This document shows, in pieces, positions 1-13,262 of a stretch of 26,291 bases of DNA (the stretch's first letter is position 1; each line of letters starts with the position of its first letter). Source of the stretch: Archangiaceae bacterium (GTDB lineage Bacteria > Myxococcota > Myxococcia > Myxococcales > Myxococcaceae); NCBI GenBank assembly GCA_043750125.1, contig JAYVCD010000094.1, positions 1-26,291 of the forward strand. The letters are read 5' to 3'. The notes under the pieces are model-generated. The model was not told where the DNA came from. It saw nothing but the letters and a program-made list of their open reading frames with translations, and made no database searches. Both the position numbers and the translations under genes were made by a program.

Positions 1-29
1 GCGCTCAGCGATCGTTGGGATCGCGCAAT

Positions 30-233
30 TCAACTCACGCTCGAGCCACTTCGCCACGATGTCCGAGTCGCTGCTTGATCAGGATGAGAGCCCGACCCAA
101 GCAGCGTGTCGAGCTGCGCTTGTCTTGGATTGCGTGCGATTCGATTCCACTGCGCCACGCGCAGCCTGGACGCGGCCCACAGCGCGGGGCCGGTCAGCGC
201 ACTGCCCCACGGCCGGCGCAAGATCACGGTCAC
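30..233 (-). pseudogene. Short (67 aa) translationally coupled ORF, possibly the truncated N-terminus of a GH3-family acyl-amido synthetase
   Basis: The GTG start overlaps the cupin stop (GTGA at 230-233). The product MTVILRRPWGSALTGPALWAASRLRVAQWNRIARNPRQAQLDTLL recalls the N-terminal 'P..AQ..TL..L' helix of bacterial GH3 proteins (from memory). The frame then drifts into unrecognisable sequence and stops at 30. Confidence 0.3.
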
Positions 234-919
234 CCGACCCACTGCGCGGGGCGGCACGGCTCCAAAAGCCGCGTTCGGATTTGGCTCAGAAGCTGTCGGT
301 AGCGGGCAGGGTCGAGGCGCTCGACCGGAACCTGGGTGAACTGCTGCGCGCTGCGCGGCTCGCGGGTCAGCACTGTCGTCGACTGTTGCAAATCCCTTCC
401 CTGGATCACGAGTGAAACGGTGGGCTCGGCCGAGTGGGTCCAGACGCGGTGGGCGGTGCCCACGCCAAGGGAATAGCCGGCATCCGGCAGGACATGGCCG
501 CGACGCACGCACGCGACATCACACGTCCCGAGCCCTTCGAGCCCGAAGTGGGCTGCTCCTGCGGTGGGTCGATACCGGTAGCAATGCCAACCCTCGCCCG
601 GCCTGATCACGTACTCCTCGAAGCGGTAACCGCCCCGCAGCACTCTCGAACCGAAGTTCCACCGGTGATCGTGGATGTCGCTTTCCCGACCTCCTTGCGG
701 CCAGGCGTGCAATCGAACCTTGTACGCGCCGGGTTTCTCCATCAGCACGAGCTTGGAAAAACCGAACGTGTGCTCGTACGAGCGGCTGGCCAGATGCACC
801 AGCTGAGCCTCGAATTGGGGAGCCAGGATCGCGTCGATCAACGACACCACGGCATCGTCAACGAACAACCCGAGAATGGAAGTGACGCTTTCGAGCGAGT
901 CATCCTTCTTCATTCGCAT
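230..919 (-). CDS. Cupin-fold metalloprotein, cysteine dioxygenase-like (3-His)
   Basis: Motifs RLHAW..SDIHDHRW..VLRG and later TAHRV..SAEPTVSL mirror the CDO pattern IHDH...HRV...EPAVSL. Start placed at ATG 919 (alternative 913), after GGGAAG and 22 bp downstream of the decarboxylase stop. Confidence 0.75.
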   Translation of the reverse strand: MRMKKDDSLESVTSILGLFVDDAVVSLIDAILAPQFEAQLVHLASRSYEHTFGFSKLVLMEKPGAYKVRLHAWPQGGRESDIHDHRWNFGSRVLRGGYRFEEYVIRPGEGWHCYRYRPTAGAAHFGLEGLGTCDVACVRRGHVLPDAGYSLGVGTAHRVWTHSAEPTVSLVIQGRDLQQSTTVLTREPRSAQQFTQVPVERLDPARYRQLLSQIRTRLLEPCRPAQWVG

Positions 920-941
920 CGCAACTTCCCGCTCGAGAGAC

Positions 942-2303
942 TCACCCAAGACTGACCTCGGAACGGGCGCGATCCAGCGCATCGAGGACCACCTCGAGAT
1001 CTGCCTCCGAGGTGGCGGCGCTTGCGATGCACGCGCGAAGTGCCGGCCTCCCGGAGACCTGCGTCGAGGCGAGCCAGGCCCAGCCGCCATCGGCCACGTG
1101 CCGGGCGAGGGCGGCGTGATGGGGCGCCGAGGGTCGGCGGCTGTCGGCGAAGCAGACGATCGCCAGCGGGCTCTCGAAGAGGATCTCCCAGTTGCGCTGT
1201 TGAAGCTGGGCCGCGAGCCAATGGCCGAGTCTCACCTGCTCTTCGACCCGCCGCGCGAAGCTGCCCCACCCTTCTTCCAGCAGCGGAAGCAGCAGCCGCA
1301 GGCCGGTGAAGCGACGAGACCACGACAGCGAGGCACAGTACGGATCGGCGGGCACGTCGGCGGGAAGCACGTATGCCGCGTGCGGTGCAAAGATGCGCAA
1401 CTGCGCCGGGTCGCGAACCAACAGCAGCCCCGTGCCCAGCGGCATCGAGAGTCCCTTGTGGGGATCGAAGGTGATCGAATCTGCCCGCTCGATGCCCCGC
1501 AACAGCGGCCGCAAGCTGGGCGAAAGTGCTGCGGCGCCGCCCCACGCAGCGTCAACGTGGAGCCAGAGATCATTTGCCTCGCAGACCGCAGCCAGGTGCG
1601 CGAGCGGGTCGATTGCACCGACGTTGGTGGTGCCCGCTGTCGCTGCCACCATCAGGGGAAGTCGCCCGCTTTGGCGATCGGCGTCGATCTGCCGCTGCAG
1701 CGCTTCAGGATCCATCTGAAATCGCGCGGCGCAGGGAACCAGCTGCAAGGCCTCGCGCCCGAGCCCGGTGGCAACCGCAATCTTCTCCAGACTGCGGTGC
1801 GACTCGACCGACGCGTAGATCGTCGGCCGGGTGGTTTGAAGACCGCGTTCCTCGAAGCCCGGCGTCCGTTTCGCGAGCGCGAGGATCACGGCGGTCGTGC
1901 TGGCCTCCGATCCTCCACTGGTGAAGACCCCACCCGCGTCGGGCCCCAGGCCGAAGAAGGCGGCCAGGTCGCGCACGAGCCGCTCCTCGACCGCGACCGG
2001 TCCCGGACTGGCGGAGCGAACCGCGAGCTGGGGGTTGACCCATGAGACGAGCAGATCTGCCGCGGCCGCGGCTTCCAGCGGCGCAGCTGTGAACCACCCC
2101 AGACACCGCGGGTGAGAGCCGCGAAGGCCGTCGTCGAGGAGGCGGCCGCAGATCTCGAGCGCCTCAGTGCGTGAGCGGCGCTGGTCGAGCGGGATCTTGC
2201 TGACCAGCTCTTCGAGCCCACGCCCGTTCGACTGAACCGGTGTCTGCGCGTTTGTCGTGAGCCGTTCGATCACCGGTTTCAGCGCGTCGAGCCAACCGAT
2301 CAT
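942..2303 (-). CDS. Group II pyridoxal-phosphate-dependent amino acid decarboxylase (GAD/CSAD/AADC/Ddc family)
   Basis: Motifs GVFTSGGSEA, SHRSLEK, ATAGTTNVGAIDPL, WLHVDAAWGG and ADSITFDPHK (PLP lysine). The ATG at 2303 forms an ATGA overlap with the upstream stop. Confidence 0.93.
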   Translation of the reverse strand: MIGWLDALKPVIERLTTNAQTPVQSNGRGLEELVSKIPLDQRRSRTEALEICGRLLDDGLRGSHPRCLGWFTAAPLEAAAAADLLVSWVNPQLAVRSASPGPVAVEERLVRDLAAFFGLGPDAGGVFTSGGSEASTTAVILALAKRTPGFEERGLQTTRPTIYASVESHRSLEKIAVATGLGREALQLVPCAARFQMDPEALQRQIDADRQSGRLPLMVAATAGTTNVGAIDPLAHLAAVCEANDLWLHVDAAWGGAAALSPSLRPLLRGIERADSITFDPHKGLSMPLGTGLLLVRDPAQLRIFAPHAAYVLPADVPADPYCASLSWSRRFTGLRLLLPLLEEGWGSFARRVEEQVRLGHWLAAQLQQRNWEILFESPLAIVCFADSRRPSAPHHAALARHVADGGWAWLASTQVSGRPALRACIASAATSEADLEVVLDALDRARSEVSLG

Positions 2304-2797
2304 GAGAAGACCTCCCGGACCAGGTCCGACACTCCGGTCTGCTCCGCACGCCACGCCAGGTAGTCGCGATCGAGCCGCCCTTCCCAGTGGCGGAGCAGGG
2401 CCACGGCGTCATCGAGATCGCACTTGCCCGGCTCGTCGCGCCGCAAGGTGAGCTTGAGGGTCAGCTGGTCCTCGGCGGAGAGGACCCAGCCGAACGTCGG
2501 GTGGGCCAGCCGGCGCGTCGACAAGGCGTGGTCGAAGCACAAGGTGTGGACCCGGTCGCCAGAGCGAAGAATGAGCGGTGCCGCCCAGACCTCTACGTCT
2601 CCAAGCCGAAGCCCGTTGGGTGGCACTCGATCGGCGTGCGGGAACAGCGCCATGACCTCGTGAATCGATGTGCAGCGAACGACAATGTCGATGTCTCGCG
2701 GCGGCCGCGACCATCCGTACACCGCGCCTGCCGCGCTTCCGAAGACCGCGTGTTCGAGACCCCCGCGGGTGAGGACCTTCAAGACGTGCTCACACAT
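2300..2797 (-). CDS. Small Pol-beta-superfamily nucleotidyltransferase-like protein
   Basis: hhGS..A..YG..R..RDID (G[GS]...DxD) motif plus a C-terminal L.AED...LK....R....K.D..D helix motif. It overlaps both neighbours. Confidence 0.7.
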   Translation of the reverse strand: MCEHVLKVLTRGGLEHAVFGSAAGAVYGWSRPPRDIDIVVRCTSIHEVMALFPHADRVPPNGLRLGDVEVWAAPLILRSGDRVHTLCFDHALSTRRLAHPTFGWVLSAEDQLTLKLTLRRDEPGKCDLDDAVALLRHWEGRLDRDYLAWRAEQTGVSDLVREVFS

Positions 2798-3875
2798 AGG
2801 TGTCGAGCACGCACGAGGGACGCTCCGCGCGATAGCGGCGCAGGAAGTCGCCCAGAAAACCGACGTGAGAGCCCAGCCAGGGAAAGACGCCGAGCTGCCG
2901 GCCTCGGTGTTCTGCCGGAAAGAAGAAACGGATCAGCACCGCATCGTCTTCAGCGGGCAGCATCTCCAGCCGTTCGATCAGCGCGTCGTAGGCCTGGCCC
3001 GTGGATCCCTCGAGCAGGCCGCGCGGGTTGGGGCGACCGACGATCCGATCGTCTTCGATGATGTATCGCTGAAGTAGGAACTCCTCGAGATTCGAAAGAT
3101 AGACAGCCGTGAGCTTGAGGCCGGCGGCTTCGACGATGCGCCGAACAGAAGCAATGCCGCCCGGGCTCGCGACGTTTCCCAGCAACGGAATGATCTTGTT
3201 CTGGGCGTGCATCGCCTTCACATATCCAAATCGATCTGGATGGGTGAGGTAGTGGAAGTTGAAGCCTTCGGGGGTTGTGGCGGTGATGACCTCTTCGAAG
3301 TCGGGAATCTTGTCTAGATTGGCCAGACATTTTTCAGAGACGCTCGTCACCTGAAGCTGCCGGCGAACGAGCTCGCGAAGCAGCCGCTCCACGCGCTTCA
3401 GCAAGACCTCGTCAGCTGTCCAGCGGGCCCTGAAGGTGGCCAGAACGTGGGCCAGGAAGGTGGCCGCCTGCACCTCATCCATTGACTGGTCCTTCAGCTG
3501 CGCCACCACGCTGCCGATCTTCGCGAGGCCGGCGACGGGTCGGCGTCGGCCGAGGACCAGACAAAGATAGTCGAGGGGGTTGCCCGCTTCGGCAAAAGCC
3601 AGCTTGAAAATGAGGTGCTCGAGAAGGTTATCCAGCCGCGCATCCAGGATGACTGCGAGCTGCGGCCGCAGCGCCCCGATGTATGTGTAATTCTGGTCTG
3701 GCCCCACGCCCAGATAGGCGCCCCGGGGCGAGGGGCTCGCGGGCATGCATCGAGAGAGCACTTCGTTGTAGCCGACCTCGCTGCTGACGAAGCAGTCGAG
3801 CCCGTAGTCCGTCGACGGAGGAGCAAGAGTCAGTTGTTCGCGAATCAACGCATCGAAAATGGGTGTCATTGGCAT
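2790..3875 (-). CDS. Conserved hypothetical protein, putative class I SAM-dependent transferase (BtaA/DUF3419-like pattern)
   Basis: Gly-rich GAYLGVGPDQNYTY is followed by a strand ending in Asp (AVILD), then LLEHLIFK and later YL....F..V...VYLSNLEEFL, the order expected for a Rossmann methyltransferase fold. The start is uncertain (ATG 3875 or 3869; the frame is open to 4010). The stop overlaps the next start by 8 bp. Confidence 0.6.
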   Translation of the reverse strand: MPMTPIFDALIREQLTLAPPSTDYGLDCFVSSEVGYNEVLSRCMPASPSPRGAYLGVGPDQNYTYIGALRPQLAVILDARLDNLLEHLIFKLAFAEAGNPLDYLCLVLGRRRPVAGLAKIGSVVAQLKDQSMDEVQAATFLAHVLATFRARWTADEVLLKRVERLLRELVRRQLQVTSVSEKCLANLDKIPDFEEVITATTPEGFNFHYLTHPDRFGYVKAMHAQNKIIPLLGNVASPGGIASVRRIVEAAGLKLTAVYLSNLEEFLLQRYIIEDDRIVGRPNPRGLLEGSTGQAYDALIERLEMLPAEDDAVLIRFFFPAEHRGRQLGVFPWLGSHVGFLGDFLRRYRAERPSCVLDTYV

Positions 3876-4289
3876 CGCGTTGAGCAATGGCCGGACCAAT
3901 TTTCGGCCGTGGATCTCCGCAAAACGTCTGGTCTGTGGACGCAGGCTGCGCAAGGCGCTGCTCAGCGCGCGACATCCCCAGCCTGATTGGACTCGAAATA
4001 GAGGCCCCACCCTACGCGTGCTGCTGCGACGGGCATGAGGCGCTCAAGCCTCGAGCGTCAATGAAGGGGGGTGGGAAAACGGTCGCCAGTTCAGCTGAGG
4101 CTCGCCATCGTGAATCGCGTTGCCAGAAACTCGGCATTGATGGCCAGCCGGCTGGCACTGCGATGCCGAACCGTCCGGACGGATCTGCGGGACCCTGCCT
4201 TTCGGGCCACCCGCATTTCCGGATGAATCGGGGCCCGACGTTTCACTTCGAAAGATCTTCAATTGGGTTGACCCGTTGGAGGCGCCCAA

Positions 4290-5720
4290 ATGAACCGCAC
4301 CACTACCTTCCTCGTGATCGCCGCCGCCCTCGGGCTGATGGCATTGGTCGTAAAACTTCCTGGCCCGTCGTCGGCAGTCGCCGCCCCCGCCCGACCCGAA
4401 CTCCCGGTGCAGACCGCCCGCCTGGTGGAAGCGCCGAAGGGCACTCCCGGTTCATTGACGCTCGCCGGCAAGCTGTCTCACCCCTACGTCACTCCGGGAA
4501 CTTCAGACATCTACCTCAGCCTGGAGGTCAGCGGAGTCGATGTCCCCGGAGCCCGCCGCGCCCCCGTCAACCTGTCGGTGGTGCTCGATCGCTCAGGCTC
4601 GATGGCTGGCGAGAAGATCGCCCACGCCCGCAAGGCCGCACTCGCGTTGGTGGATCAGCTCGACGAGCACGACCGGCTGGCGGTCATCCACTACGGCAGC
4701 GACGTGGTGGTCTTTCCCGGCGCGTTCGTGACCGACGAGAACAAGCGGCGCTTGAAAGCCTTCATCGCGCGGATTCAAGACGAGGGCGGAACGAACATCG
4801 GAGAAGGCCTCACCGCCGGAAAGGCCCAGCTCGACCTCGGACGCTCGGACTTCAAGGTGAATCGGTTGATCCTGCTTTCCGATGGTCAGCCCACGGTGGG
4901 GGTCACCTCGGTGGCCGGCCTCACCCGTCTGGCCCAGCGGTACCACTCGGACGGAACCACGCTCACCAGCATCGGCATCGGCCTCGACTTCAACGAGGAC
5001 CTGATGCAGCGGCTGGCCGAAGTCGGCGGGGGCAGCTACGCGTACCTTCAGGACTCGAACGCGATCGCCAGCATCTTCGAGCGAGATCTGAAACAAGCGG
5101 GCACGGCGGTCGCCCGCGACGTGACCCTGGGGCTGACCCTGCCCGCGGGAGTGCGATTTGGCGAGGTCCTCGGCCGTTCCGCGTCAGTCAACGGCACCGC
5201 GGTGCTCATTCCCTTGCCGGACTTCTCGGCCCGTCAGATCGAACGCCTGGTGGTCAGGGTCAGCGTTCTGGCCGGTGGGACTTCAAACGAGGCGATCGAC
5301 GTAGCCGACCTGAAGCTCAACTACCGCGATGTGCTCGCGGACCAGCCGGCCGACGCAAACCTGAAGCTTGCTGCAATGGTGACGGTGAATGCGACGTTGG
5401 CTTCCGCGCGCCGCGACAAGGACGCGGTGGTCGCGGCGACCCGGGCTCTGTCGGCGGTGAACTACAAGAACGCAGCAGGCTGGCTCGAACGGGGAGACGG
5501 GCGCCGGGCGAGCGCCGAGCTGAAGAAGAACGAGCGGCTCTTCGATGACGTGGGGGACCTCGCGGGCAAGGAGCTCGAGACCGATCGCGCCCAGAACCAG
5601 CAATTTTTCGGGATTACAAGTTCGCCTGCCGCCGCGCAGCCCGAAGGCCAATCGGCCGGCAGCAAGGCGATGAAAGTTCAATCGTTCAAGAGCAGTGGTT
5701 ACGGCGATTCGGTGTACTGA
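4290..5720 (+). CDS. von Willebrand factor A domain protein (YfbK-like) with N-terminal signal/anchor
   Basis: MIDAS motif VLDRSGSM, GGTNI, ILLSDG and IGIGLDFNEDLM; hydrophobic N-terminus; GGAGG Shine-Dalgarno upstream of the ATG. Confidence 0.9.
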   Translation: MNRTTTFLVIAAALGLMALVVKLPGPSSAVAAPARPELPVQTARLVEAPKGTPGSLTLAGKLSHPYVTPGTSDIYLSLEVSGVDVPGARRAPVNLSVVLDRSGSMAGEKIAHARKAALALVDQLDEHDRLAVIHYGSDVVVFPGAFVTDENKRRLKAFIARIQDEGGTNIGEGLTAGKAQLDLGRSDFKVNRLILLSDGQPTVGVTSVAGLTRLAQRYHSDGTTLTSIGIGLDFNEDLMQRLAEVGGGSYAYLQDSNAIASIFERDLKQAGTAVARDVTLGLTLPAGVRFGEVLGRSASVNGTAVLIPLPDFSARQIERLVVRVSVLAGGTSNEAIDVADLKLNYRDVLADQPADANLKLAAMVTVNATLASARRDKDAVVAATRALSAVNYKNAAGWLERGDGRRASAELKKNERLFDDVGDLAGKELETDRAQNQQFFGITSSPAAAQPEGQSAGSKAMKVQSFKSSGYGDSVY

Positions 5721-5754
5721 CCGCTGTAAGGGTGCGTAAAAAATGCGCATGCGG

Positions 5755-5770
5755 TGGCGCTTGACCCGCT
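5755..5770 (+). promoter_or_regulatory. Weak sigma54-like -24/-12 element upstream of pckG
   Basis: TGGCGC-TTGAC-CCGCT has the correct GG-N10-GC spacing but a poor -12 match. It also contains TTGACC, which could instead be a sigma70 -35. Confidence 0.25.
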
Positions 5771-5798
5771 TCACGGTTTTGGCCAAGTAACTCCACCT

Positions 5799-7562
5799 AT
5801 GGCAAACCAGACGCTCACTTCGAATACCCACCTGCAGGGCTGGGTGTCCCAGATGTCGAAGATGTGTCAGCCGGACAACGTCGTCTGGCTCGATGGCAGC
5901 GAGGAAGAAAAGAAGAACCTCACTGAGCTCGCCGTCTCGAAAGGGATTTTGATCCCGCTCAACGCCCAGAAGCACCCCAACAGCTATCTGCACCGCTCGA
6001 ATCCGAATGACGTGGCGCGGATGGAACACCTGACGTTCATCTGCTCGAAGACCAAGGACACGGCCGGGCCGACCAACAACTGGATGGCGCCGGACGAAGC
6101 CTACGCGAAGCTGACCGGACTGTTCACGGGCTCGATGAAGGGTCGCACGATGTACGTCGTGGCCTACGTGATGGGCCCACTGGGCAGCGAGCACAGCAAG
6201 GTCGGCATCGAGCTGACCGACTCGGTCTACGTGGCGCTCAACATGCGGATCATGACCCGCATGGGGAAGCAGGCGCTCGACACGCTCGGCGACAAGAACG
6301 ACTTCAACCGCGGTCTGCACTGCACCGGCGACTTGAATCCCGAGCGCCGCTTCATCTGCCACTTCCCCGAAGACAACACCATCTGGAGCTTCGGCTCGGG
6401 CTACGGCGGCAACGCCCTGCTCGGAAAGAAGTGCCTGGCGCTGCGCATCGGCAGCTACCTGGGTCAGAAAGAAGGCTGGCTCGCCGAGCACATGCTGATC
6501 CTCGGAGTCGAGAACCCCGAAGGACAGAAGACCTACGTCGCAGCCGCTTTCCCCAGCGCGTGCGGGAAGACGAACTTCGCGATGATGATTCCCCCGAAGC
6601 GGTTCAACGGGTGGAAGGTCTACACCGTCGGCGACGACATCGCCTGGCTGCGGGTCGGGGCCGACGGGCGGTTGTGGGCCGTGAATCCCGAGAACGGGTA
6701 CTTCGGCGTCGCTCCGGGAACGAACTGGGCGAGCAACCCCAACGCGATGAAGTGCATCGCGAAGGACACCATCTTCACCAACGTCGCCGTGACCAAGAAT
6801 GGCGAAGTCTGGTGGGAAGGAATGGACGGGGAAGTCCCCGAAGAGCTGATCGATTGGAAGGGGCTGCCCTGGAAGCGCGGCAGCGCGGAAAAAGCGGCGC
6901 ACCCGAACAGCCGCTTCACCGCGCCGGCGAGCAACAACCCGATGCTGTCGAGCCACGTCAATGATCCGCAGGGCGTCCCCATCGCCGCGCTGATCTTCGG
7001 TGGCCGGCGCAGCACGACCATTCCCCTGGTGATGCAGTCCTTCAACTGGCGGCACGGGGTGTACCTCGCAGCGACGCTCGCTTCGGAGACCACCGCCGCC
7101 GCGACGGGCAAGACTGGCGTCGTGCGCCGCGACCCGATGGCGATGCTGCCCTTCTGTGGCTACAACATGGGCGACTACTTCCAGCATTGGCTTCAGATGC
7201 AGAAGCGAATGCAGTTTCCGCCGAAGGTGTTCTGCGTGAACTGGTTCCGCAAGAGCGCCGAAGGCAAGTTCCTCTGGCCCGGCTACGGCGACAACATGCG
7301 GGTGCTGAAGTGGATCGTCGATCGCGCCCACGGCACAGTCGGAGCGCACGAGTCGTTGTTCGGCTGGGTGCCGAAGGCAGGACACATCGATTTGTCCGGG
7401 CTCGACATTCCGCAAGAGCAGGTCGACGCGGCGCTGGCGATCAACGAAAGCGAGTGGCGCACCGAGCTCGAATCCCAGGCCGAGTTCTTCGCTCAGTTCG
7501 GCGACCGGCTTCCCAAAGCGCTCGAGCTGAACCGCCAGCTGTTGCTCTCACGCCTCGACTGA
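5799..7562 (+). CDS. pckG: Phosphoenolpyruvate carboxykinase (GTP)
   Basis: [69 protein letters not shown] and VNWFRK are all present. Strong GC3 bias. Start placed at ATG 5799. Confidence 0.98.
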
Positions 7563-7611
7563 AAGGATCCGATTCGCCCTGAGGAGACCGGGCGGGGTAG
7601 TTTGCCGCTTC

Positions 7612-9285
7612 ATGCCCCGACCCATTTCTCGTCCGGCGCCGTTCGCACCGATTTCCGCGCGCGCCGAGGACGTCTCGGCGAGCCCGTCGGTCTTGGTTTC
7701 GCGTGAATCGGGTGATTCTTTTGCAGCCGGCAAACCGCGGCCGCCCGTTCCGGCCGAGCTGGCGAGATCGATCAGTGACTGGGTCCGGGGACCCACCGGC
7801 CACGCGGCCGAGCAGGCCATTTTGGACCTGCTCGAGAAGGCGAACGCCGTCCCCAACGGCCTGGCTTCCACCTTCTACGAGCTGTCGCGGATCGACGGCC
7901 GCCTTCCCGAGAAGATGATTCGCGATGTGGCCGATCGATCGATTTCTGATCGCCTTCACGGCCGTGAACAATCACCCGAAGCGCTGAAGCTCTGGTCGAT
8001 GTTGATGGACGGTGCCCCGGTGCCCCGAAGTCGGGACGCGATGCTGTTCGGGCTGCTGGCCCGCGCGATGGAGATCGGCTCGATTTCCGAACCCGCGGTG
8101 GCGACCTACGCCCGCGAGCGGCTGCGAGACACGGACGGGCAGCTGTCGGTCTTCGGCGCCACGCTCGACCGCCTGGATCGCCGGAAGGCCTCCCAGAAAG
8201 GCACCTTCGGCAACCGGGCGCTGAACTTCGCGTACCACTTCTACGACAAGACCCGGCTGACCCACGTGCTCAACACGCTGATGGGCACCCACGACACCGA
8301 GTCGCCTGCCGAGGTGCAGCGCGCGCTGACCAGCCCCAAGGTCCGGGGTGCGGACGGGGTCGAAAAATCTCTGGGCGATGTCACGGTGCTGGTCAACGGA
8401 ATGCTGAACCTCGAGCCGACGGCGCCGATGATGTTTCGGCTCGCGCGCCACACCGCCGGGCCGGTCATCCTCGCGAGCAGCAACCCCGATGGGGCAGACG
8501 GTTATCGGCTGCGCGAGCTGACCGAAATCTGGGGCGTGCCGGTGCCGCCCGAGCTGAAGGGCAAGCTCTGGGCGATTGGCGACGTCTCGGCCACGATGAT
8601 CACCTGGCCCCAGGGTTCGGACCTGTTGATCGAGCACCTGGGAATCATCGACGCCCAATTTGCTGCGCTGAAGGCTGCGAATCCGAAACTGGCGGGGGTC
8701 GATTCGTTCCGCGCGGCGAAGACCACCGTCGTCGGCTACAGCCAGGGCGCGCTGTCTGCGACCGCGGCGCGAAAGCGGTTGGAAGACGCTGGGCTGCCCG
8801 ATGTCATCGACAACCTGATCGCCGTCGCGGGCGATTTCGCGGGTACCCCCTTCGCCGACGGGGTCGACTCGGCCGAAGACCTTCAGGCCGGACAGGGACA
8901 TTCCGGCCCCAACGCGCGGGTGGCTCAGACACTCGAGAAAATCCTCGCCCAGGTCGATGGCGAAGAAGGAGCGCGGACGTTCGAATCGAACGACCCGGAC
9001 TTCGTTCGCCGAATGAGCCAATCGCTGGGCTTGAGCTCGGACCTGGTCGACGTGTCCTACTACGCGAAGGCCAGCAGCCCGACCGACAAGGTCGAGCCGA
9101 TTTTCGGCAGCGCCGCACGACTGCTCGAGTGGGCCCTGGGAAATCGCGGGCACGGCTCGGACGGAGTGATTCTGACCGGCGAGTCCCAACTCGGCCGCAA
9201 GGTGGTGATGGACGAGAGCCCCAAGAGCCACCTGATGATCTGGAAGGACCAGGACACGGTCGACCGGATCCTCGAAGCGCTCTGA
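7612..9285 (+). CDS. Alpha/beta-hydrolase (lipase/esterase-like) with long N-terminal extension
   Basis: Nucleophile elbow VVGYSQG, LIAVAG..AGTP, SDGVI (acid) and C-terminal SHL (His). The roughly 250 aa N-terminal region is unrecognised and has no signal peptide. Confidence 0.75.
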   Translation: MPRPISRPAPFAPISARAEDVSASPSVLVSRESGDSFAAGKPRPPVPAELARSISDWVRGPTGHAAEQAILDLLEKANAVPNGLASTFYELSRIDGRLPEKMIRDVADRSISDRLHGREQSPEALKLWSMLMDGAPVPRSRDAMLFGLLARAMEIGSISEPAVATYARERLRDTDGQLSVFGATLDRLDRRKASQKGTFGNRALNFAYHFYDKTRLTHVLNTLMGTHDTESPAEVQRALTSPKVRGADGVEKSLGDVTVLVNGMLNLEPTAPMMFRLARHTAGPVILASSNPDGADGYRLRELTEIWGVPVPPELKGKLWAIGDVSATMITWPQGSDLLIEHLGIIDAQFAALKAANPKLAGVDSFRAAKTTVVGYSQGALSATAARKRLEDAGLPDVIDNLIAVAGDFAGTPFADGVDSAEDLQAGQGHSGPNARVAQTLEKILAQVDGEEGARTFESNDPDFVRRMSQSLGLSSDLVDVSYYAKASSPTDKVEPIFGSAARLLEWALGNRGHGSDGVILTGESQLGRKVVMDESPKSHLMIWKDQDTVDRILEAL

Positions 9286-9297
9286 CCCCGACGGGGC

Positions 9298-9963
9298 TCA
9301 AGGGGAAACCCACCAGACGAGCTCGCCGTGGGTGGGCTGGACCTTCTGAATCGGCAGCTCGCCGCTCTTGCCCTGCACCCGCTGAAGAATCTCTTTCTTC
9401 TCGGGGCCCGCGGCAATGATCCACACCCGCTTCGCCGCGTTGATCAGGGGCAAGGTCATCGTCATCCGCTTCGGGGTTTCGTTCATCACCACCAGGCGCG
9501 ATTTCTCGGCCAGCTGGGGCGAGCCGGGAAACAACGAGGCGGTGTGACCGTCGGCCCCCAGCCCCAGCAGGACCAGGTCGAGCACCGGCACGCCTTCGTG
9601 AAGTTCTTTGATCCGCGAGCGCAGCAGCTGCTCGTACCCCGCGGCGTCGCCCTGCTCGGCCGGCATCGGGTGGGCCACCACCTTCACTTCCCCCAGCTCA
9701 TCGAGCAGCGCCTTCTTCACCATTCCGTAGTTCGATTCGGGGTGGTCGAGCGGGACTGGACGTTCGTCGCCGAAGAACAGCTCGACCTTCGGCCACTCGA
9801 TCAGCGGAGTCATCGCCAGCGACTGGTAGAGCAACCGGGGAGTCTTTCCCCCGGACAAAGCGATCGAGAACGGGGTGTGCCACGTCATCTCGACCGCGTC
9901 GATCAGCGCCCCTTCGAGCTGTTCGACCAGGGTGGGCAGGTCTGGGCAGAGAATGTTTTTCAT
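9298..9963 (-). CDS. pgl: 6-phosphogluconolactonase
   Basis: [43 protein letters not shown] and RMTMTLP.IN.A; ATGA overlap with the zwf stop. Confidence 0.96.
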
Positions 9964-11348
9964 TGGGTGTTCCAGCCGCCCACGTCCGAGACCAGCTGGT
10001 CGGCCTCGGCCGGGCCCCAGGTGCCGGGGTCGTACTCGAACATCGGGCTGGGGCCGTGAATCACCGGGTCGACGATGGCCCAGGCCGCCTCGACTACGTC
10101 TTGCCGGGCGAAGAGGGTCGCGTCGCCGGCCATCGCGTCGCCGAGCAGCCGCTCGTAGGCTTCCATTCGACCCTTCTCGCCCTGCTCCGGGGTCTCGACG
10201 ACGCTCAGTTCCACCGGCTTGCCGGTCATTCCTTCGCCGGGTGCCTTGGCCCGCGCGCCCATCGCGATCACCACCGTCGGGCTCAACCTGAAGCGGATGT
10301 AATTGCCCATCGCCGGAGCCTTCTCGTTGAAGACCACCTGGGGCGGATTCTTCAGCTCGACGAACAGCTCGGTGGTGGTGGTCTTGAGGCACTTTCCCGC
10401 GCGCACGTAGAACGGGACGCCTTCCCACCGCCACGAATCGATGTGAAGCCGCAGTGCTGCGTAGGTGGCCATGTGCGAGTCCTTCGCGACGCCCTCTTCA
10501 TCGCGATAACCGCGAAATTGGCCGCGGACCATGTGCTTCGGGTCCATCGGGCGGATGTTCCGCAAAACTTTCGCCTGCTCGTCTCGAATCGCTTCGGGCC
10601 AGGTGGACGAGGGCGGTTCCATCGCCAGGTAGCTGACGACCTGCAGCAGGTGGTTCTGAATGACGTCGCGAATGACGCCGGTCTCTTCGTAGAACTTTCC
10701 ACGGCCCTTCACCCCGAAGCTTTCCGCGAGGGTGATCTGCACGTTCTCGACGTAGTTCCGGTTGAAGATCGGCTCGAGGAAGGCATTGGCAAACCGGAAG
10801 TAGAGGATGTTCTGCACGGCTTCCTTCCCCAGGTAGTGGTCGATGCGAAAGACCGCTTCCTCGGGAAAGCTCTTGTGCAGCACGGCGTTGAGCTCGCGCG
10901 CCGACTCGAGGTCCCGCCCAAACGGCTTCTCGACGATCACCCGCGCGTCCTGGGTCAACCCCGCTTCGACCAGGTGGCCAACCACGGCCCCGAACATGCT
11001 CGGGGGAATCGCCAGGTAGTGCGCGGGTCGCTTCGCGTCGTTGAGGGCGGCCTTCAACTTCACGAAGGTCGCCGGCTCGTTGTAGTCGCCATCGATGTAC
11101 TGCAGCTTGGCTGCGAGCCGGGGGAAGGCCTCGGGATCCAGGCCTCCGTATTCGGTGACGCTCGCCTTCGCCCGTTCGATCAGCTGCTCGCGGCCAATTC
11201 CAGATCGACCCACGCCCACCACTGGAAAATTCAGTCGCCCCGCCCGGGCCAGGGCCTGCAGCGCGGGAAAGATTTTCTTGTAGGCCAGGTCTCCGGTGGC
11301 GCCGAAGAAGACCAACGCGTCCGACTGCTGCCGGGGGGGCGCGGTCAC
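9960..11348 (-). CDS. zwf: Glucose-6-phosphate 1-dehydrogenase
   Basis: [45 protein letters not shown] and AYERL; GTGA overlap with the gnd stop. Confidence 0.98.
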
Positions 11349-12355
11349 TTTTTCTCCGAGTGACCACCGAAGCCAAACCGCATCGCCGACAGCACTTTGT
11401 TCTGGAACTCGTCTTCGCCCCGCGACGCGAAGCGTTCGAAGAGCGCGGCGGTCAAGACGTGCGCGGGCACTCCTTCGTCGTTCGCCGCGGCAATCGCCCA
11501 GCGCCCCTCGCCCGAATCGGACACCCGGCCGGCGAAGCTGTCGAGGTTCGGTTGGGTGACGAAGGCTGCGGCGGTCAAGTCGAGCAGCCAGGACGAGATC
11601 ACGCTTCCCCGCCGCCAGACCTCGGTGATGCTGCCGAGGTCGAAGTCGTACTGGTAGTGCTCGGGCTGACGAAGCGGAGTCGTCTCGGCGTCCTTCTCGT
11701 GGGTGCCCTTGCCGATGTTCGCCTTCTTCAAGATGTTCAGCCCTTCCCCGTACGCGGCCATCAGCCCGTACTCGATCCCGTTGTGGATCATCTTCACGAA
11801 ATGCCCCGCCCCGGCCGGCCCGCAGTGCAGGTAGCCCAGCTCGGCGGTGCCCCCCAGGTTCTGCCGCCCGGGGGTGGGTGCCAGGGTGCCTTTTCCCGGA
11901 GCCAGGGTGAGGAAGATCGGGTCGAGCCGCTTCACCACCTCGGGCTCGCCGCCGATCATCAGGCAGTAGCCGCGCTCGAGGCCGAACACCCCTCCGCTGG
12001 TGCCCATGTCGAGGTAATGGATTCCCAGCGTCCCCAGCCGCTTCGAGCGCGCGATGTCGTCGTGGTAGTGCGAGTTGCCCCCGTCGATGATCGTGTCGCC
12101 CTTCTCGAGCAGCGGCAGCAGCTGCTCAATCGAAGCGTCGACCACCGCGGCGGGGACCATCAGGCAAAGGGTGCGCGGCTTTTGAAGCTTCGCGACCAAC
12201 TGCTCGAGGGTCGCGCTGCCGATCGCGCCTTCCTGGACCAGGGCGTCGACCGCGGCCGCCGAGTAATCGAACACCACGCTGGTGTGACCGCCTCGCATCA
12301 GCCGCCGAACCATGTTGGCCCCCATCCTTCCCAGACCGATCATTCCCAGTTGCAT
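11345..12355 (-). CDS. gnd: 6-phosphogluconate dehydrogenase (decarboxylating), short type
   Basis: [48 protein letters not shown] and [10 protein letters not shown]; 336 aa; AAGGGG upstream of ATG 12355. Confidence 0.97.
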
Positions 12356-12434
12356 TGCGTGCCCCTTGAAAGAGATTTTTTGTCCTTTACGCCTTTCTGC
12401 CTGCTCCGGGTCGGCACAAGGTAGGTTTCCACGC

Positions 12435-13262
12435 ATGCGCTGTGCCGGCTTGGCTTCAACGGCGGTCCTGGGTGTGCTTTTCCTGCTTTCGACGGCCCAG
12501 GCGGCCAACCCCAAAAGCGGAGCTCTGATTAAAGAGGGCGACCGGCTGTACAAAGAAAACAAGTACCGGGAAGCCGCCGAGGCGCTGAAAAAGGCCTACG
12601 ACCTCGAGCCCGCGGGGGTGCTGCTCTACAACATCGCCCGCGCGTACGACCAGGCGGGCGAGCTGAAGATCGCCCTCGACTACTACCGGGTGTTCGTCGG
12701 TCAAGAAGGCTCAGAGCCTGCCCTGGTCAAGAAGGCCAACCTCGCGATGGACCGGCTGCGAACCCTGGTGGCGAAAGACGAGGCGGGACGACAGATGAAC
12801 GACGCCGAAAAGAAGCGGCTCGAAGACGAGGCGCGCGCGGCGAAAGGAAAGGCCAGCGAAGAGGCCGAGAAAGGCCGGGTGCAGAAAGAGGCGTACGAGG
12901 CCAAAGAGAAGGAAGCCGTCAAAGCGGCGCAGAGCAAGACGAGCCTGCGCCTGGTCAGCAGCCTGGGGCTGGGCGGGGTCGCGGTTGCAGCGCTGGGCTC
13001 GGGAATCGCCTTTGGGGTGCTGGCCGGTTCGAGCAAGTCGAGCTTCAACGCGGCGACCACCGGGGCGGACAAGAAGAGGCTCGAGAGCGAAACGAGGACC
13101 CGCGCATTGATTGCCGACGTGAGCTTCGTCGGCGCAGCGGCGGCCGCGGTGGTGGCGGTGATCCTCTTTCCCAAGGGCGGTGCGGCGTCAGAAAAGGCGG
13201 TCGAGGTGGTCTTCGCGCCGGCTCCGGGCGGGGCGTTTGCTGGGCTCCAGGGGTGCTTCTAA
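12435..13262 (+). CDS. Secreted TPR protein with charged helical linker, two hydrophobic segments and C-terminal Phe
   Basis: Signal peptide ending AQA; TPR-like YREAAEALKKAY..P..LLYNIARAYDQAG; two Gly/Ala-rich hydrophobic stretches; ends PAPGGAFAGLQGCF. Confidence 0.85.
   Translation: MRCAGLASTAVLGVLFLLSTAQAANPKSGALIKEGDRLYKENKYREAAEALKKAYDLEPAGVLLYNIARAYDQAGELKIALDYYRVFVGQEGSEPALVKKANLAMDRLRTLVAKDEAGRQMNDAEKKRLEDEARAAKGKASEEAEKGRVQKEAYEAKEKEAVKAAQSKTSLRLVSSLGLGGVAVAALGSGIAFGVLAGSSKSSFNAATTGADKKRLESETRTRALIADVSFVGAAAAAVVAVILFPKGGAASEKAVEVVFAPAPGGAFAGLQGCF

Follow-up and report, generated by a model that had tools for sequence, protein, structure and literature searches.

Do five tightly packed genes at the end of a contig belong to one pathway, and if so, what might it produce? 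The question is raised by positions 30 to 3875 of contig JAYVCD010000094.1 (C94) from the Archangiaceae bacterium assembly GCA_043750125.1 (G000; 460 contigs, 89% complete). The window, the whole stretch of DNA that was analysed, is the first 26,291 bases of this contig. All five genes are on the minus strand and, read in the reverse complement, follow each other in the order DUF7790 gene, nucleotidyltransferase gene, pyridoxal 5′-phosphate (PLP)-dependent decarboxylase gene, cupin gene and the start of a GH3 acyl-acid amido synthetase gene (Table 1). Many unusual lipids and natural products come from myxobacteria. The gene arrangement argues for a single, translationally coupled operon, and the predicted enzymes suggest a GH3-dependent amide- or aminolipid-type pathway, in which an amine formed by the decarboxylase would be joined to a (fatty) acid and the other enzymes would be involved in tailoring, an assignment that we consider evenly balanced between right and wrong.

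A conserved operon in Myxococcota

The DUF7790 and nucleotidyltransferase genes share 8 bp (ATGTGTGA at 2797-2790), the nucleotidyltransferase and decarboxylase genes overlap in ATGA at 2303-2300, and the cupin gene is joined to the fifth open reading frame (ORF) by GTGA at 233-230. The decarboxylase stop codon, TGA at 944-942, is followed after 22 bp (941-920) by an ATG at 919-917 that could start the cupin gene, and an in-frame TTG at 949 makes the cupin gene overlap the same stop codon by 8 bp (TTGGGTGA). In another Myxococcota genome, G016, the orthologous cupin and decarboxylase genes overlap in ATGGTTGA. Because the TTG-949 overlap matches this one, and the residues added by the TTG start resemble the N-terminus of the G016 cupin, the 22-bp gap is probably not real and TTG 949 is the likelier start. 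The coding pattern GC3>GC1>GC2 is found in all five frames. An earlier, sequence-only reading had described five co-directional ORFs joined by three overlaps and one 22-bp gap; all four junctions lie at the coordinates it gave, and the gap is the part that probably falls away.

Four other Myxococcota loci (L006 in G016, L008, L009 and L012) show this gene order with these overlaps, which places the arrangement beyond chance and agrees with the earlier proposal of one unit whose homologues occur together elsewhere. Searches with the five proteins using tblastn recovered DUF7790-nucleotidyltransferase-decarboxylase-cupin-GH3 in G016 (L006/L007), and DUF7790-nucleotidyltransferase-decarboxylase-GH3 in L008 and L009, with no cupin gene in these 13.6-kb and 10.3-kb loci. 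A pattern scan with the nucleotidyltransferase alignment, covering one genome per species for 185,579 species, returned four loci, all in Myxococcota metagenome-assembled genomes (MAGs), and 1 of 80 metagenome loci kept carries DUF7790-nucleotidyltransferase-decarboxylase up to the end of its contig. The DUF7790/nucleotidyltransferase overlap has the form ATGnnTGA in 5 of 5 loci. The nucleotidyltransferase/decarboxylase overlap is 4 bp in four loci and 1 bp in the fifth, and in each of the four loci that extend to the decarboxylase stop, the next gene can overlap this codon by 8 bp. The genes on either side of the cluster vary from locus to locus.

The conserved core of the cluster is DUF7790-nucleotidyltransferase-decarboxylase-GH3. 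The cupin gene is an accessory member: of the 4 loci that cover the decarboxylase-GH3 junction, 2 have it, and the comparison of loci indicates that it was inserted before GH3 in the lineage of G016 and the window's genome. The cluster is rare and restricted to a few Myxococcota lineages; of 401 genomes sampled from the phylum, only 2 contain close orthologues of the nucleotidyltransferase, and a further 28 matches have E values of 8e-11 or weaker. A more divergent DUF7790-nucleotidyltransferase-decarboxylase-GH3 copy is found in the same MAG as L009 (L010, JAXLYM010000023.1 32300-48764, at ~6990-11260). In this copy, DUF7790 and the decarboxylase are matched by tblastn in several separate segments, possibly because a paralogous cluster is decaying or because assembly introduced frameshifts.

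No nonribosomal peptide synthetase or polyketide synthase gene adjoins the operon in the loci examined, as had been noted for the window, and no small ORF or precursor peptide upstream of DUF7790 is common to all five loci. The cluster was not found described in the literature on DUF7790, on OlsH/GH3 or on myxobacterial GH3 with decarboxylase and nucleotidyltransferase (supplements aside), and the view that this combination of genes has no described pathway stands.

Table 1. Coordinates of the operon genes and associated features in the window.
Feature	Position	Strand	Remarks
DUF7790 protein, 361 aa from ATG 3875	2790..3875	-	PF25046, E 4.7e-19
Predicted minimal nucleotidyltransferase, 165 aa	2300..2797	-	Fold and motif; overlaps DUF7790 stop by 8 bp
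Group II PLP-dependent amino-acid decarboxylase, 453 aa	942..2303	-	PF00282, 201.7 bits vs cut-off 27
3-His cupin, thiol-dioxygenase-like fold	230..949	-	229 aa from ATG 919, 239 aa from TTG 949
GH3 acyl-acid amido synthetase gene, first 45 codons	99..233	-	GTG start at 233 overlapping cupin stop (GTGA)
Target-site duplication, 8 bp	99..106		CGCTGCTT on minus strand
Insertion sequence, left end (multicopy)	1..98	-	Terminal inverted repeat 98-79, GGGTCGGGCTCTCATCCTGA on minus strand
Presumed operon promoter region, shared with divergent VWA-domain gene (4290-5720, plus)	3876..4289		Position only

The GH3 gene is split by an insertion sequence

The fifth ORF (30-233) had been read as a GH3-like remnant. 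It does belong to a GH3 gene, though not to a remnant: this is a full-length gene split by an insertion sequence (IS) at the contig end. Only 233-99 is GH3 coding sequence, and 98-1, including the stop codon at 32-30, is part of the IS. Contig C22 of the same assembly carries the other ~475 codons (9907-11334, minus strand), which run into the end of that contig, where the other end of the IS is flanked by the identical 8 bp (CGCTGCTT, C22 11335-11342). When the IS and one copy of the duplication are removed in silico, a 520-aa ORF is obtained that is gap-free at the junction after residue 45 and is identical to the intact G016 GH3 at 344 of 533 positions. G016 carries the same genes followed by this intact GH3 of 526 aa, the first ~43 residues of which match the window ORF.

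The inverted repeats, the target-site duplication and the many copies identify window 1-98 as an IS end. C94 and C22 each terminate in ~98 nt that open with inverted copies of a 20-nt repeat. Allowing up to 3 mismatches, this repeat occurs 11 times in the genome; 10 copies read outward ~98 nt from contig ends, and the eleventh is internal with 3 mismatches. The left-end type (96-98 nt) is located at six contig ends, those of C94 (window 1-98), C111, C207, C231 and C258 with 100% identity and that of C11 with 96%, and the second end type at four, those of C22, C137 and C345 with 100% identity and that of C159 with 84% over part of the length. A second contig pair, C258/C137, has a common 8-bp flank, CTGGCGGT. 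The IS, with its 20-bp inverted repeats and 8-bp duplications, accounts for ten or more breaks in the assembly. The IS body and a transposase are absent from the 460 contigs and also from a relative, G005, in which a 73%-identical IS end is found at four contig ends.

Logan contigs from four sequencing runs (X1-X4), two of which may be the source of the assembly, were compared with the window. In X1, the depth over 1-100 is 195-288 vs 8.7 over 101-1500. Summed depths over 1-100 range from 90 to 288 in the four runs, and for the unique DNA behind, the depth is ~8 in two of the runs and does not exceed ~5 in the remaining two. The sole contig seen to enter the junction from the operon side, in X1 and X2, terminates within the IS end, and positions 101-250 have no cover in X3 and X4. 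An IS-free allele was not seen in the Logan contigs of the four runs, contigs from which rare variants are dropped. The insertion interrupts GH3 after codon 45, and the last step of the operon is therefore knocked out as assembled.

Downstream of the split GH3 gene, C22 416-9300 (locus L011) includes genes for a PF00756 esterase, several GT4 glycosyltransferases and two ATP-grasp enzymes, none of which is conserved beside the cluster in the other loci.

Relationship of the cluster GH3 to OlsH

Bacterial GH3 enzymes are numerous, and no characterised one other than OlsH was found in the literature. The intact G016 protein matches all three GH3 domains (PF03321, PF23571 and PF23572), the C22 piece matches PF03321, and the nucleotide-binding motifs SSGTSG, YNATEG and YRLGD are readable in the sequence. 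The best model is NCBIfam OlsH (NF052613, an equivalog), which aligns to the cluster GH3s over almost the whole of its own length, and the fifth gene is predicted to encode a GH3 amido synthetase related to OlsH.

OlsH was shown to acylate ornithine with a fatty acid at the expense of ATP, giving N-acyl ornithine, and its operon also encodes a head-group N-methyltransferase and an O-acyltransferase (PMC12493201). The likeness to the OlsH-OlsG-OlsI system of Singulisphaera acidiphila is that of a GH3 in a short operon with enzymes that modify the head group, and ATP-dependent amide formation would be expected to be the chemistry common to both. In the loci scanned, unlike in the OlsH operon, neither an OlsI alpha/beta-hydrolase nor OlsG is conserved; GH3 is instead partnered by a PLP decarboxylase, a minimal nucleotidyltransferase, DUF7790 and, in some loci, a cupin. 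No alpha/beta-hydrolase adjoins GH3 among the ORFs that were scanned in L006, L008 and L009. Myxococcota orders are not listed among those with OlsH homologues in the available part of a 2026 review (PMC12971839).

A second GH3 gene of the window's genome, in C51 19290-27006 (locus L149 291-8007, minus strand), specifies a protein that shares 50% identity with the cluster GH3 of G016. The gene is the first of a co-directional run that includes an inositol-phosphate-synthase-like (myo-inositol-1-phosphate) gene and genes for a DegT/DnrJ aminotransferase, an LPG-synthase transmembrane protein and an MMPL transporter. This run is possibly an operon for formation of a head-group amine, GH3 ligation and export, with an aminocyclitol lipid as product. 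By analogy, its pairing of amine-making genes, GH3 and lipid-export proteins supports the combination of an amine with GH3 that is proposed for the operon.

The decarboxylase and the cupin

The Pfam match of the third gene product (Table 1) upholds its earlier identification as a PLP decarboxylase, and the PLP-lysine motif DPHK is present in the translation. The best PDB matches are CSAD (2jis, E 1.3e-53; human and mouse CSAD), GADL1 and 4rit. Solved relatives with similar scores are CSAD, GADL1, a Sphaerobacter enzyme, tryptophan decarboxylase, GAD65 and DesA, and the matches also include the desferrioxamine decarboxylase 5o5c and the diaminobutyrate (DABA) decarboxylase 2qma. The best NCBIfam model is the DABA decarboxylase RhbB (NF052646), with 174.7 bits vs a cut-off of 900; the decarboxylases of L008 and L009 score 194 and 181 bits with this model.

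These matches bear on a different product, a siderophore-like or polyamine conjugate, for which diaminobutyrate, ornithine or lysine would be decarboxylated to a diamine, GH3, in place of an IucA/IucC-type synthetase, would couple this diamine to a carboxylic acid, and the cupin would hydroxylate the product. RhbB is the best NCBIfam model for all three cluster decarboxylases tested (175-194 bits), 5o5c and 2qma are among the PDB matches, and GH3 is itself an adenylating amide synthetase. However, the RhbB scores are far under the equivalog cut-off of 900, a receptor, transporter, N-hydroxylase or acyltransferase is not conserved beside the genes, and the cupin is missing from half of the loci that span the junction (2 of 4). 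We regard such a conjugate as unlikely.

The fourth gene product has no Pfam match at E ≤ 0.1, including CDO_I (PF05995), and a profile search of PDB sequences gave only chance-level matches to repeat proteins. Its assignment as a 3-His cupin, made in the sequence-only reading, is borne out by the fold match and by three aligned histidines. The structural model has a pLDDT of 94.2, and its best VIA match is the Bacillus subtilis cysteine dioxygenase (CDO) 4qm9 (Z 13.2, rmsd 2.5, 139 aligned). The 36 best VIA matches are all thiol dioxygenases (Z 13.2 to 10.4), with sigma-1 receptors from Z 10.3. An hhalign comparison with 12 canonical CDO_I sequences from related genomes (probability 87%, E 4e-6) places H83, H85 and H157 on the HxH...H ligands of CDO. 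In the same alignment, Gln173 and Val171 occupy the places of Tyr and His from the Ser-His-Tyr catalytic triad of thiol dioxygenases (Tyr157 in rat CDO). The CDO_I segment SLHvY aligns to T/S-L-V-I/L-Q, and Gln173 is nearly invariant in 58 family members.

A word-based search recovered only three relatives of the cupin, and HMMER with a four-sequence cupin profile detected 2,119 cluster representatives (50% identity) at E ≤ 0.001. Among 34 scanned from the 150 listed members, 31 match no Pfam family, 2 have sub-threshold matches to Cupin_6 and 1 is a NUDIX fusion. The family consensus includes IHNHRWDF...LHRV...LQGP, and two members are ~500 aa. The family is present in 4 of the 401 sampled genomes of the phylum, and no canonical CDO_I gene was found in either the window's genome or G016.

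A CDO-fold 3-His cupin beside a group II decarboxylase nearest CSAD/GADL1 recalls the CDO + CSAD taurine pathway of eukaryotes and bacteria. In a hypotaurine/taurine-type route, the cupin would oxidise the thiol of cysteine or cysteamine to a sulfinate, a CSAD-like decarboxylase would yield hypotaurine and GH3 would N-acylate it. Although human and mouse CSAD are the best PDB matches of the decarboxylase, and the structural matches and three His ligands of the cupin point the same way, the residues typical of the two enzymes are not kept. The selectivity residues of CSAD are reportedly F94/S114/Y116, which correspond to F116/S136/Y138 of 2jis_A, and these align to T72/Q92/A94 of the decarboxylase, which counts against CSAD as the identity of this enzyme. 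The catalytic Tyr and His of CDO are likewise replaced, there is no CDO_I Pfam match, and the cupin is dispensable, L008 and L009 having the core with no cupin in the locus. This route is judged improbable.

The DUF7790 and nucleotidyltransferase pair

No Pfam or PDB sequence match was found for the second gene product. Seven database homologues were recovered, and G20-S21...D35-x-D37 is invariant in the 8 sequences. The structural model has a pLDDT of 93.5, and Foldseek matches it to MenT1 (8an4, E 2e-5; TM-score 0.64-0.71 by query), TM1012, ANT(2'')-Ia and LnuA; all 8 matches at E ≤ 0.001 are NTase-fold or nucleotidyltransferase-like entries. The modelled fold and the hG[GS]...DxD motif confirm the prediction of a minimal nucleotidyltransferase, as the sequence-only reading had it. 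The fold and the G-S...DxD catalytic motif are what it shares with ANT(2'')-Ia, LnuA and MenT1, whereas identity to these is 10-20% and the enzyme described here is fixed in an operon with DUF7790.

PADLOC gave no match for the nucleotidyltransferase, generic PLP-fold matches of the decarboxylase to SspA and DndA, and a marginal 12-bit match for DUF7790. The closest solved fold is that of the tRNA-nucleotidylating toxin MenT1, but a conflict or toxin-antitoxin-like module around a MenT/AbiEii-like nucleotidyltransferase, with unrelated or regulatory neighbouring enzymes, is very improbable given the PADLOC result, the equally good fold matches to the small-molecule nucleotidyltransferases ANT(2'')-Ia and LnuA, the position of the gene in all 5 loci, where it lies beside DUF7790 and the decarboxylase and always overlaps genes for metabolic-type enzymes, and the 18 loci of distant relatives examined, in none of which it lies beside the partner genes.

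The first gene product belongs to PF25046 (69.3 bits vs a cut-off of 23), as do 42 of 42 aligned homologues. There are 45 database clusters with 42-76% identity to it over 93-100% of the query, and in the ESM Atlas it groups with DUF7790 clusters; when these are set aside, the closest cluster with a name is DUF3419/BtaA at 0.79, which is a lead only. PDB entry 6ulo ('uncharacterized protein') matches at E 3e-4, in part. The likeness to 6ulo/LIC_10091 consists of the shared family PF25046 and an HMMER match at the conserved ...GN...YxSNxEE region, whereas the match to the LIC_10091 family is partial (NCBIfam 33 bits vs a cut-off of 350). With no characterised function of its own, the solved protein gives no functional hint, and a literature search for LIC10091/6ULO listed Leptospira surface-protein papers only. 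By eye, the conserved GVGPDQN, a downstream D, GN and YLSNxEE resemble a Rossmann-type fold for binding S-adenosylmethionine (SAM) with a long insertion, and such a fold may be present. A predicted complex of DUF7790 with the nucleotidyltransferase scored 0.00, which gives no verdict either way.

Distant DUF7790 genes (~30% identical) are found in other surroundings, 79 of the 80 metagenome loci kept being without the nucleotidyltransferase, decarboxylase and GH3. From 26 of these loci, 62 of 147 neighbouring ORFs were scanned; neighbours include a GDSL lipase (5 loci), GNAT (5), DUF72 (4) and sigma-54 activators, and no usable functional link was found among the ORFs scanned. An ESM Atlas cluster whose 54 members are ~612 aa long and occur most often in Myxococcota has an FGE-sulfatase domain (PF03781) fused to DUF7790; OvoA has an FGE-like and then a Rossmann-like domain in this order. 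Just upstream of DUF7790 and on the same strand, L008 (~3150-3851) and L012 (upstream of 861) carry an acetyltransferase-like gene. The two products are 73.5% identical over 185 aa, with 3zj0 ('acetyltransferase', E 1e-6) as the best PDB match, and this is an upstream gene common to L008 and L012 only among the five loci.

Proposed pathway

In the GH3-dependent pathway proposed for the operon, the decarboxylase would remove the alpha-carboxyl group from an amino acid to leave a primary amine. GH3 would use ATP to adenylate a carboxylic acid, probably a fatty acid because of the relationship to OlsH, and would join it to the decarboxylase amine, or to an amino acid, so that the product would be an N-acyl amine or resemble an aminolipid. 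For the two best-understood enzymes of the operon, this sequence of decarboxylation and amide formation is the simplest chemistry. The cupin would be an O2-dependent Fe(II) tailoring enzyme, and DUF7790 and the nucleotidyltransferase would act together on the head group by group transfer or nucleotidylation. The enzyme classes, except that of DUF7790, and the linkage of the genes are established, and from them we infer how the steps connect. The sequence-only reading had also arrived at an amine-containing metabolite or lipid head group with possible amide ligation, a reasonable proposal that the relationship to OlsH strengthens.

A number of observations weigh against this pathway. The four cluster GH3s score 241, 226, 235 and 236 bits with the OlsH model, below its cut-off of 620, and in the loci scanned neither an OlsI-like acyltransferase nor a transporter is conserved beside the cluster. 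The decarboxylase is far below every NCBIfam equivalog cut-off, with no substrate assigned, and the replacement of the CSAD selectivity residues counts here too. No methyltransferase Pfam family is matched by any of 42 DUF7790 members at E ≤ 1, and a comparison of DUF7790 with 19 BtaA-type DUF3419 sequences by hhalign gave a probability of 0.9%; the earlier description of the first gene as SAM-transferase-like was not confirmed by these comparisons. The roles given above to DUF7790 and the nucleotidyltransferase are guesses, and the order of the steps is tentative. The cluster is known from five carrier loci, every one of them in a metagenome assembly, and none of the 6 runs that contain the stretch is listed as RNA.

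The product could be a new GH3-dependent lipoamine, with a decarboxylated amine as head group that is built or decorated by the always-overlapping DUF7790/nucleotidyltransferase pair, a more specific version that seems doubtful. In a bolder form, DUF7790 might be a SAM-dependent 3-amino-3-carboxypropyl transferase, the transferred group then being trimmed by the decarboxylase to aminopropyl. Every acyloxyacyl aminolipid known to us has a head-group carboxylate, and the head group of such a lipoamine would be without one. Either form would also provide the first function for DUF7790, for an unclassified minimal nucleotidyltransferase and for a thiol-dioxygenase-like cupin family of >2,000 clusters that has no Pfam model. 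The operon would be a compact, testable case of a GH3 wired to an amine-forming decarboxylase, not to a free amino acid, and, with three unassigned families in one pathway, identification of the product would annotate all three. The copy to express is the intact orthologue on contig C64 of G016 (L006 6591-12002), not the IS-disrupted copy of the window.

Genes adjacent to the operon

A consensus scan of positions 1-4400 gave 0 promoter-like sites (no sigma-70-like site) and 3 terminator-like sites vs 3.0 expected, which is no excess, and there is no Rfam match in the same positions at E ≤ 1. The neighbours of the operon in the window (4290-12562) are ordinary. The VWA-domain gene diverges from the operon and is followed by a 602-aa ORF (5754-7562), which by eye looks like a GTP-dependent phosphoenolpyruvate carboxykinase, and by a gene for a 557-aa protein with no assigned family (7612-9285). 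The segment 9960-12562 carries genes for glucose-6-phosphate dehydrogenase and a 6-phosphogluconate-dehydrogenase-like protein.

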